From NCBI GenBank assembly GCA_045531455.1, contig JAZSEA010000112.1:16196-80195 (forward strand): DNA of 64,000 nt. Reading direction: 5' to 3'. Made by a program: the position numbers and the translations under genes. This document shows positions 4,262 to 4,642 of this stretch, in pieces. Source of the DNA: Eubacteriales bacterium. Its GTDB lineage: Bacteria; Bacillota; Clostridia; Oscillospirales; CAG-272. Numbering within the stretch: position 1 is the first letter of the stretch; each line of letters begins with the position of its first letter. The notes under the pieces were generated by a model, which saw nothing but the letters and a program-made list of their open reading frames with translations, was not told the DNA's origin and did not search any database.

Positions 4262-4642
4262 TCGGTGTTGGGTTTTGCAACCGTTCATACCGATCGGGCG
4301 GCGGAGGACTTGAGCGGGGAGCTTGCAAGGCGGAAAGACTGTCTTTTGACCTTGCTCGCACCGTCGCGGTATCCACTCTCCGACAAAGCCCTGTCGGTAT
4401 ATTCGAACGGTTGCGATTCTGAGAAACGTTCCTTAACGTTTTTGTCCCGAAGGACGTCCTAAGCCACAGGCATATACCTTTTCGGTATACGGCAGGATTC
4501 GAACCTGCGAAAAGATGGGTTAACAGCCCAATTCGGGGATTTGAACCCCATCGCATAAGCGATTGCCAAAGAGTAAAGCAGATTCGGCATACGCTTTGGG
4601 AACCCCTCGCGCACCGCGGTGATTCATCCACCTTTGCCTTAC
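4262..4642 (-). ncRNA. Putative structured non-coding RNA/leader with tRNA-like modules
   Basis: About ten hairpins including two T-arm mimics (GGGG-TTCAAAT-CCCC, GCAGG-TTCGAAT-CCTGC), an anticodon-like arm TGGG-CTGTTAA-CCCA, a UUCG tetraloop hairpin and a 10+7 bp long-range helix; lies between a promoter and the slipin RBS. Confidence 0.7.

Follow-up and report, generated by a model that had tools for sequence, protein, structure and literature searches.

What is a sequence that resembles part of a transfer RNA (tRNA), with its arms in an unfamiliar order, doing in front of the genes for an SPFH/Band-7 protein and the RNA ligase RtcB? The question is raised by a 64,000-nucleotide (nt) stretch of DNA from a Eubacteriales bacterium (contig JAZSEA010000112.1 of assembly GCA_045531455.1, positions 16,196-80,195 of the forward strand), called the window throughout, in which a WYL-type gene, a gene for a 301-aa protein and the SPFH and RtcB genes all lie on the minus strand. 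At 4492-4549 of this strand an earlier note had described two T-arms flanking a hairpin with the loop CTGTTAA, had read them as a tRNA-Asn mimic in view of the YrlA Y RNAs near rtcB, and had found neither a D-arm nor a clean acceptor stem. All three hairpins are present, and the comparison presented here supports a conserved tRNA mimic of the YrlA kind in an RtcB neighbourhood. Judged by conservation and covariation, the element is real and under selection, and its core is a circularly permuted tRNA look-alike. Coordinates of all features are given in Table 1.

Four copies of the T-arm core GGTTCRAWTCC stand in the 64-kb window, where 0.18 would be expected; two are at this locus and two in genuine tRNAs at about 59 kb. 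The hairpin GCAGG-TTCGAAT-CCTGC has all that defines a canonical T-arm (a 5-bp stem closed by G53-C61 and a TTCRANN loop). Membership in the Rfam tRNA family RF00005 is another matter, since neither cloverleaf order, nor a score above the gathering threshold, nor a call by a tRNA finder was found. ARAGORN reports the three tRNAs at 58991-59273 in the window and nothing at 4492-4549, as the earlier note had anticipated in expecting a pseudogene or no call. The same three tRNAs are the only matches in the window at Rfam gathering thresholds. Searched permissively, RF00005 gives 16.6 bits at 4489-4551(-), against a cut-off of 29, by treating the T-like hairpin upstream as if it were a D-arm. At E<=10 the RNA body has no match to any other Rfam family, the remaining weak matches falling on a terminator-like hairpin at about 4675-4800, and no further copies of the three hairpins were found in the genome. 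A close match to the 3' half of tRNA-Asn had also been proposed. This holds for the loop, as CTGTTAA is made of the same seven bases as the anticodon loop of the genome's own tRNA-Asn(GUU), which likewise has a canonical TTCRANY T-loop with a closing G-C. It does not hold for the stems, which are unrelated, or for the alignment as a whole, in which the stretch scores 16 with tRNA-Asn and 18 with tRNA-Gln or tRNA-Pro. The mimic also differs from this tRNA in having no 5'/3' acceptor end and in carrying its D-arm on the 3' side.

When the entire intergenic region was searched as DNA against 41 related genomes, only its promoter/terminator part was recovered, in two other genomes, and no match to the RNA body was obtained in the 24 genomes of the same genus that were searched. 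The cassette is therefore patchy, and comparison was made through the SPFH protein. The loci compared are the best 80 of 229 stretches encoding a relative of this protein, chosen for that homolog only; they come mostly from gut Clostridia, with one from Phascolarctobacterium (taxon labels include at least Oscillospiraceae, Lachnospiraceae, Christensenellaceae and Phascolarctobacterium). In 62 of the 80, a T-arm fitting G[CT]NGG-TTYRANN-CCNRC is found some 250-450 nt upstream of the SPFH gene, on stems that include GCGGG/CCCGC, GTGGG/CCCAC, GCAGG/CCTGC and GCCGG/CCGGC. The order of elements around it is variable hairpins, T-arm, a loop-closed acceptor-like stem-loop (AS) and a D-like arm.

A covariance model, R1, comprising the T-arm, AS, the D-like arm and a following hairpin (hairpin 4), has its match in the window at 4431-4513(-), scoring 63.7 bits (E 3.5e-15), and also matches 69 of the 80 loci at E<=0.01, 62 of these with at least 36.8 bits. 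In the model-based alignment of 65 distinct rows, 87.2% of cells are paired against 70.2% after shuffling, double changes are seen in 15 of 19 pairs, and the covariation score of 0.448 (0.178 when shuffled) was reached by none of 500 shuffles, slid registers giving at most 0.11. The sequence of AS differs between lineages yet always pairs, and the D-like arm keeps the form CC[N]-RTGGYTT-[N]GG. Two of the five T-arm pairs covary (CG 50 / UA 14; GC 43 / AU 20), with the closing G-C of the T stem invariant in 65/65 rows. The D-arm and acceptor stem thought to be missing are therefore both there, conserved and covarying, on the 3' side of the T-arm. A Levitt-like 15:48 pair links the base 5' of the T stem (tRNA position 48) to the first base of the D-loop (position 15): in this order it is C:G in 47 distinct rows and T:A in four (L010, L063, L064 and L072), eight other rows having C:A (4), T:G, T:T, A:G or C:T (1 each). 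With this permuted order, the T-loop and the GG of the D-loop, a tRNA elbow can thus form without free acceptor ends.

The tRNA-like module is part of something larger. The 447-nt intergenic strand has a folding energy of -161.9 kcal/mol, against -133.4 +/- 6.0 kcal/mol for shuffled sequences (z = -4.76, 0/100 shuffles as good), and near-invariant sequence blocks span the entire alignment of the window with 65 loci, from a conserved T-run to the SPFH start. This outlines a structured RNA of about 370 nt, at about 4643-4279 (-), with three domains and the tRNA-like module inside. Hairpin H3 of the 5' domain has an internal loop and ends in an invariant GTATGCC; its helices are 99.6% and 98.7% paired, with exchanges at 79:97 (AU 30 / GC 23) and 85:89 (AU 25 / CG 19). 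Helix P1 joins the 5' GCAAG to a CTTGC directly after GTATGCC. Its support lies in compensatory variants from several lineages (GTAAG/CTTAC, ACAGG/CCTGT, GCAGAA/TTCTGC, TACAGA/TCTGTA, GTCAAG/CTTGAC; GTAAGGC/GCTTTAC in the window), because a swapped-partner control, weak when G-U pairs are counted, discriminates poorly (foreign targets match the own length in 563/1448 comparisons). Two other pairings were considered for this end. A local hairpin GCTTG...CAAGC, which is 64.8% paired and competes with P1, was not included, and a pairing of GCAAGG with a distal CCTTGCC was set aside for the proximal partner, a switch between the two being possible. The helix closing the 3' domain varies in its inner sequence and keeps its complementarity (ATGCAAAAGCGA/TCGCTTTTGCAT and CAATATATCTTTTA/TAAAAGATATATTG among the loci, TATACCGA/TCGGTATG in the window), the longest complementary run averaging 7.51 between own strands (n=45) and 5.71 between strands from different loci. 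Invariant pieces lie within the domain, such as GGATACCG.

Upstream of the RNA, the promoter-proximal motif GTTCGCAnCTTTTTTTCCGTG is near-invariant across families and occurs once in the genome. It includes the 3' half of the terminator-like inverted repeat that follows the 301-aa gene, and it is kept where the upstream half of that repeat is missing (e.g. L022, L027, L037, L073). It would be a candidate operator or protein-binding site, perhaps for the adjacent WYL-type regulators. A -10-like TAnAAT sits 17 nt after GTGNAA, and this is the putative promoter of an RNA-SPFH-RtcB transcript that would start near 4643.

Linkage to the neighbouring genes is observed directly: within the fetched range of the 80 loci, several of them cut by contig ends, the 301-aa gene is found in 63, the WYL gene in 58 and RtcB in 62. 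No RtcB homolog was found downstream of SPFH in the fetched range of the other 18 (L012, L018, L027, L044, L047, L064, L065, L067-L070, L073, L074, L077, L079, L081, L082 and L084), some of which are cut by contig ends and others of which may carry a different gene. The same association appears from the RNA side. A search starting from an RNA pattern in block B was degenerate and too loose, so that most of the 80 stretches listed are chance matches in GC-rich genomes; R1 is present in 29 of these 80, the only ones used, with SPFH downstream in 27, no room for it in one and a truncated copy in the last. This copy (L137, 7520-7900 (-)) scores 75.9 bits in the core, ends inside the 3' domain and is without the promoter motif, and neither SPFH nor RtcB was found within 7.7 kb downstream of it; it is probably a rearranged remnant.

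R1 has a single match in the window's own genome, and its best score in 150 other genomes of the phylum is 33.7 bits. Ten of the 30 best loci of this phylum scan were checked by ARAGORN, and all ten have a genuine tRNA gene within about 65 nt, eight overlapping the start of the match. Such weak matches are consistent with anchoring of the model on T-arms. A reading of them as tandem tRNA pairs was dropped, as the coordinates do not show it.

Two described groups of RNAs come close to this one. The first is YrlA (RF02553), whose tRNA-like domain has the order V-T-AS-D and a covarying 15:48 Levitt pair according to Chen et al. 2014 (PMC4201824). That order (V stem-loop or stem-loops, T-arm, closed AS stem-loop, D-arm), the conserved nucleotides of the T- and D-loops, a 15:48 pair covarying as G:C/A:U and an operon with RtcB are all found here as well. 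The other marks of a YrlA RNA, a Ro60 (TROVE) gene in the vicinity and a Ro-binding motif near the 5' end, are not. TROVE is absent among the eight neighbouring open reading frames (ORFs) scanned and from the genome (0 matches; completeness 97.68%), and the motif GNCGAAN0-1G, searched as GNCGAANG, does not occur in the RNA part of L001; for the form lacking the spacer base, inspection by eye shows GCCGAATC in the window. The Rfam YrlA model (cut-off 69 bits) gives no match at E<=10 in 4100-4800, and in the whole genome it matches tRNA regions only, with at most 24.9 bits. The present RNA differs further in that its protein neighbour is SPFH/Band-7, that WYL-type regulators take the place of RtcR, that its length, including conserved 5' and 3' domains, is about three times as great, and that its V region bears 7-nt loops resembling those of anticodons and, in some members, a second T-arm.

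The second is b7a-tRNA, the 'band 7-associated tRNA' predicted by Burroughs and Aravind 2016 beside Band-7 and RtcB genes and, according to the preprint 10.1101/312249 (Wang et al. 2018), still unvalidated at that time. The same preprint states that YrlA occasionally adjoins Band-7 and that b7a-tRNA strongly resembles authentic tRNA. Our RNA likewise is tRNA-like and adjoins a Band-7 gene and RtcB. It differs from the resemblance so described, as it does not have cloverleaf order, and ARAGORN is silent on it in the window and makes poor calls at 7/80 loci. The term 'b7a-tRNA' was found in the full-text literature in that preprint alone, and we found no paper describing an RtcB/Band-7 tRNA-like RNA further; related RNAs may appear in the supplementary data of Chen 2014 and those of Burroughs and Aravind 2016. 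The element is best filed with the tRNA-like RNAs of RtcB operons, having a YrlA-like fold and a b7a-tRNA-like context, and is not in Rfam.

By analogy with these RNAs, we favour, with a probability of about 55%, a Y-RNA-like partner of an SPFH-RtcB module. The RNA would be made from the conserved promoter as the first element of the SPFH(Band-7)-RtcB operon, beside the two WYL-type genes. Its T-loop and the GG of its D-loop would form a tRNA elbow, the acceptor-like stem being closed by a loop, and its variable arms display look-alikes of anticodon stem-loops. As an RNA subunit it could give the SPFH-RtcB repair module a tRNA-shaped surface, as YrlA is thought to do with Ro60. RNA-library contigs cover 4351-4518 (X16), 4103-4531 (X17, into the SPFH gene) and 4322-4779 (X19), a weak hint that RNA and SPFH are co-transcribed.

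Several points weigh against this reading. Strand and ends are not visible in the RNA-library contigs, which may derive from DNA and whose uncovered parts carry no meaning, and a consensus promoter scan finds no sigma-70-like site at the putative promoter. We infer both the existence of a discrete, stable RNA with these ends and its binding by SPFH or RtcB. The Y RNA analogy is structural and does not extend to family membership, since the YrlA model fails and no TROVE/Ro60 match was obtained; its putative identity with b7a-tRNA follows a second-hand description of the latter. Finally, the end of the RNA always lies directly ahead of the operon's first ORF, including in L008 where an ORF is inserted, a position that would suit a cis-acting leader equally well.

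Bacterial RtcB operons are tied to tRNA damage, and their tRNA-like RNAs are YrlA (with Ro60) and the predicted b7a-tRNA (with Band-7). This locus adds a well-defined, covariation-backed example from gut Clostridia, with a model that recovers relatives. It also provides the outline of a larger three-domain RNA and a conserved promoter motif beside WYL-type regulators. Rfam has no entry for the family, and annotation of many gut genomes would gain from a curated model.

What was not expected is a region that changes quickly and abounds in exact copies of real anticodon loops. With it, a long-standing question can be tested directly, namely whether such RNAs serve as scaffold, competitive inhibitor or anticodon-nuclease bait. 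This V region lies between P1 and the main T-arm and has 0-3 hairpins per locus. Among 66 distinct upstream regions, a second T-arm is present in 23 (stems GGGG/CCCC, GAGG/CCTC and CGGG/CCCG with TTCRAMT), a loop of the anticodon form YT-NNN-R-N in 34, both in 14 and neither in 23. The second T-arm and the Asn-like hairpin of the window, both genuine features, thus belong to a variable region absent from many homologs, and the refuting condition named in the earlier note, that homologs do not keep the 7-nt loops, applies in part. A hairpin with the loop CTNNNAA occurs in 27/65 distinct regions, and 19/65 have a loop that agrees in every base with one of the genuine anticodon loops in the window's genome (Tyr CTGTAAA 7, Lys CTTTTAA 7, Asn CTGTTAA 5, Leu CTCAAAA 2, Val CTTACAA 1). 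When hairpins with a stem of at least 4 bp and a 7-nt loop are counted, with the rest of the same loci on both strands as background, CTNNNAA makes up 32/192 in V regions and 51/15,382 elsewhere (about 50-fold enriched), and genuine-identical loops 22/192 and 50/15,382, ratios that are descriptive and not a test, the sequences being related and the counts non-independent. The triplets of 42 anticodon-like loops are TTT (8), GTA (7), GTT (5), GAC (4), GTC (3), TGA (3), TTG (2), CAA (2) and eight singletons. In loci with a second T-arm, the hairpin preceding it is often anticodon-like too (CTGTAAA, CTTGAAA or CTCAAAA, with the main T-arm following after about 50-62 nt, in L031, L034, L045, L047, L048, L050, L052, L055 and L013), so that one RNA can show two different anticodon-like loops.

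Swaps of this region are seen even between almost identical relatives. The window and its closest relative L008 (SPFH 94-95% identical) share 97.5% of positions in the 5' part, 33.3% in V and 93.8% in the 3' part; L008 has lost the second T-arm, and its CTGTTAA stands on a different stem in a different place. Between L049 and L042 (99.2%, 70% and 90.8%) the loop CTGACAC gives way to CTGTTAA on an unchanged ACAAC/GTTGT stem, and the mosaic is the opposite one between L041 and L049 (91.2%, 100% and 95.7%). The V region therefore behaves as an exchangeable cassette with fast turnover.

These loops could be bait, which sharpens the idea in the earlier note of a decoy, sensor or substrate for anticodon nucleases whose cleavage products might be the WYL ligand. 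V hairpins copying anticodon stem-loops would be cut by a tRNA-cutting toxin, leaving a 2',3'-cyclic phosphate and a 5'-OH, upon which RtcB would reseal the RNA or the WYL proteins would be signalled and the operon switched on. Enrichment of CTNNNAA and genuine-identical loops and the fast turnover seen in the pairs window/L008 and L049/L042 speak for such a decoy or sensor, which we nonetheless regard as unlikely. Since both the anticodon-like loop and the second T-arm are missing from 23/66 regions, the core function cannot be that of bait; the loop counts come from related sequences and are not independent, and the conserved CU-K-U-N-AA loop could instead be a site of protein or tertiary contact. 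We know of no nuclease of this kind in these organisms, which also counts against it. In Salmonella, Hughes et al. 2020 (PMC7790460) found the rtc operon to be induced by 5' halves of tRNA with a terminal 2',3'-cyclic phosphate, and YrlA not to be cut by the damage-induced nuclease. On the other side, the V-region triplets (TTT 8, GTA 7, GTT 5 and others) include the GUN, UUU and UUG anticodons that are cut by colicin E5, PrrC and zymocin/PaT, leaving cyclic phosphate ends (PMC6277466); the site of colicin E5 is between G34 and U35 of tRNA Tyr/His/Asn/Asp, and the target of PrrC is tRNA-Lys(UUU) (PMC6277466, PMC10264068).

A more elaborate form of this idea, somewhat more doubtful again, makes the V region a display cassette that lineages load with the anticodon loops (Tyr, Asn, Asp, Lys, Gln, others) attacked by the toxins around them, a cut being an alarm for the WYL pair and/or an occasion for resealing by RtcB on an SPFH scaffold. 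If true, it would describe an RNA-based sensor of tRNA attack that evolves by cassette swapping in an arms race.

A cis-acting 5' leader, riboswitch- or T-box-like, could alternatively control transcription or translation of SPFH-RtcB upon binding a ligand such as tRNA or its fragments. The position of the RNA, always directly upstream of the first ORF and before the inserted ORF in L008, would suit such a leader, as would conserved 3' blocks that end 20-40 nt before the ribosome-binding site (RBS), a terminator scan that finds no terminator-like site between RNA and ATG, and the contig X17 that bridges RNA and coding sequence. We still consider it improbable: the consensus fold shows no alternative terminator/antiterminator or RBS-sequestering helix, and no Rfam riboswitch or leader matches the RNA body. 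It also counts against a leader that the Y RNAs of Salmonella, which are co-transcribed with their operon, act in trans. That operon, with YrlA in it, is rsr-yrlBA-rtcBA (PMC7790460).

A decayed tRNA-Asn gene or scrambled tRNA cluster without selection, suggested by the identical CTGTTAA loop, the canonical T-loop and low-quality ARAGORN calls in 7/80 homologous regions, is excluded by covariation in the core, H3 and the 15:48 pair: stems covary and loops are fixed across several families, the position in a five-part cassette is constant, and the stretch resembles other tRNAs at least as closely as tRNA-Asn, in a genome with two intact tRNA-Asn genes, which disposes of the recently decayed gene that the earlier note had named as its own refutation. 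The permuted tRNA genes of a red alga yield a circularised transcript that is then opened to a functional tRNA. A precursor of this kind, circularised by RtcB and opened at the acceptor loop, would agree with the permuted order of arms, the adjacent RtcB gene and the acceptor-like stems of 7-8 bp in some members; it is very improbable, as AS varies in length, its loops of down to 3-4 nt leave no room for processing sites or CCA, many members are without an anticodon-like arm and the host has a full set of tRNAs for these anticodons.

Table 1. Features of the locus, in window coordinates, from upstream to downstream on the minus strand.
Feature	Position	Strand	Evidence or detail
418-aa WYL(+WCX) protein	5627-6883	-	Pfam WYL 3.2e-07, 30.7 bits (cut-off 21.8)
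301-aa protein	4725-5630	-	no Pfam family above cut-off
Terminator-like inverted repeat and T-run after the 301-aa gene	4680-4717	-	terminator scan site 4682-4717
Conserved motif GTTCGCAGCTTTTTTTCCGTG over/upstream of the -35 position	4675-4695	-	anchor T5+CC[AG][TC]G in the window and 65/80 loci
-10-like TAAAAT, TG two bases upstream	4649-4654	-	consensus tg.TA.aaTat, fixed distance from the motif
5' domain	4573-4642	-	helix P1 (4636-4642 with 4573-4579), hairpin H2 (4618-4632), hairpin H3 (4590-4613)
V region	4509-4563	-	hairpin ATCGC-TTAT-GCGAT (4550-4563), second T-arm-like and anticodon-like hairpins, linker
Second T-arm-like hairpin GGGG-TTCAAAT-CCCC	4535-4549	-	sequence
Anticodon-like hairpin TGGG-CTGTTAA-CCCA	4516-4530	-	sequence
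7-nt linker TCTTTTC	4509-4515	-	sequence
Main T-arm GCAGG-TTCGAAT-CCTGC	4492-4508	-	model R1, helix 99.7% paired
Closed acceptor-like stem-loop (AS) CGTATACC-GAAAA-GGTATATG, 8 bp	4471-4491	-	7/7 modelled pairs change on both sides
D-like arm CCT-GTGGCTT-AGG, conserved GG	4458-4470	-	90.5% paired; 2/3 pairs with double changes
Hairpin 4 GTCC-TTCG-GGAC, 3' of the D-like arm	4444-4455	-	75.9% paired; 4/4 pairs with double changes
3' domain	4279-4412	-	closing helix 4394-4412 with 4279-4293
Conserved block GGGCTTTGTCGGAGAGTGGATACCGCG in the 3' domain	4365-4391	-	alignment
Hairpin G in the 3' domain	4321-4359	-	consensus fold/alignment
Block H in the 3' domain	4297-4315	-	alignment
RBS-like AAAGGAAG of the SPFH gene	4251-4258	-	sequence
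SPFH/Band-7 protein, 370 aa	3131-4243	-	Pfam Band_7 1.1e-30
RtcB RNA ligase, 402 aa	1910-3118	-	Pfam RtcB 1.8e-59; NCBIfam RtcB family

The 418-aa protein passes the Pfam WYL cut-off, and both it and the 301-aa protein have WCX matches below cut-off (E=0.0045 and, for the 301-aa protein, E=0.059). Residues 116-180 of the latter align with the WYL region of its neighbour at an hhalign probability of 7%, a weak indication that it may be a second, divergent WYL-type protein. The two may form a PafB/PafC-like pair, with the 301-aa protein as its second half. BLASTP of one regulator against the other gave no match, and the PDB yielded no significant match in sequence searches with either protein or with a profile built from the 301-aa family.

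A gap of about 430 nt separates the terminator-like repeat from the SPFH gene, whose product has no evident membrane helix (by eye). A 192-aa ORF overlapping this gap (4080-4658) has no family match and is taken to be spurious. L008 has an additional ORF between the RNA and SPFH (2243-2986, probably starting near 2367; about 200-247 aa), which the window does not have; the RNA is also about 900 nt upstream of SPFH in L021, L023, L024 and L025, where the spacing suggests an extra ORF too.

The low-quality ARAGORN calls on the homologous region, with mismatched acceptor and D stems, are tRNA-Lys(ttt) in L045, L047, L048, L050, L052 and L080 (about 2632-2712) and tRNA-Asn(gtt) in L085 (2647-2734), and an automatic annotation could take such loci for tRNA genes or pseudogenes. 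Beyond RtcB, on the opposite strand, the window encodes a metallo-beta-lactamase-fold protein and a histidine phosphatase family protein (17-1866 (+)), and the three tRNAs at 58991-59273 (+) form an ordinary tRNA-Gly(tcc)/tRNA-Arg(tct)/tRNA-His(gtg) cluster.

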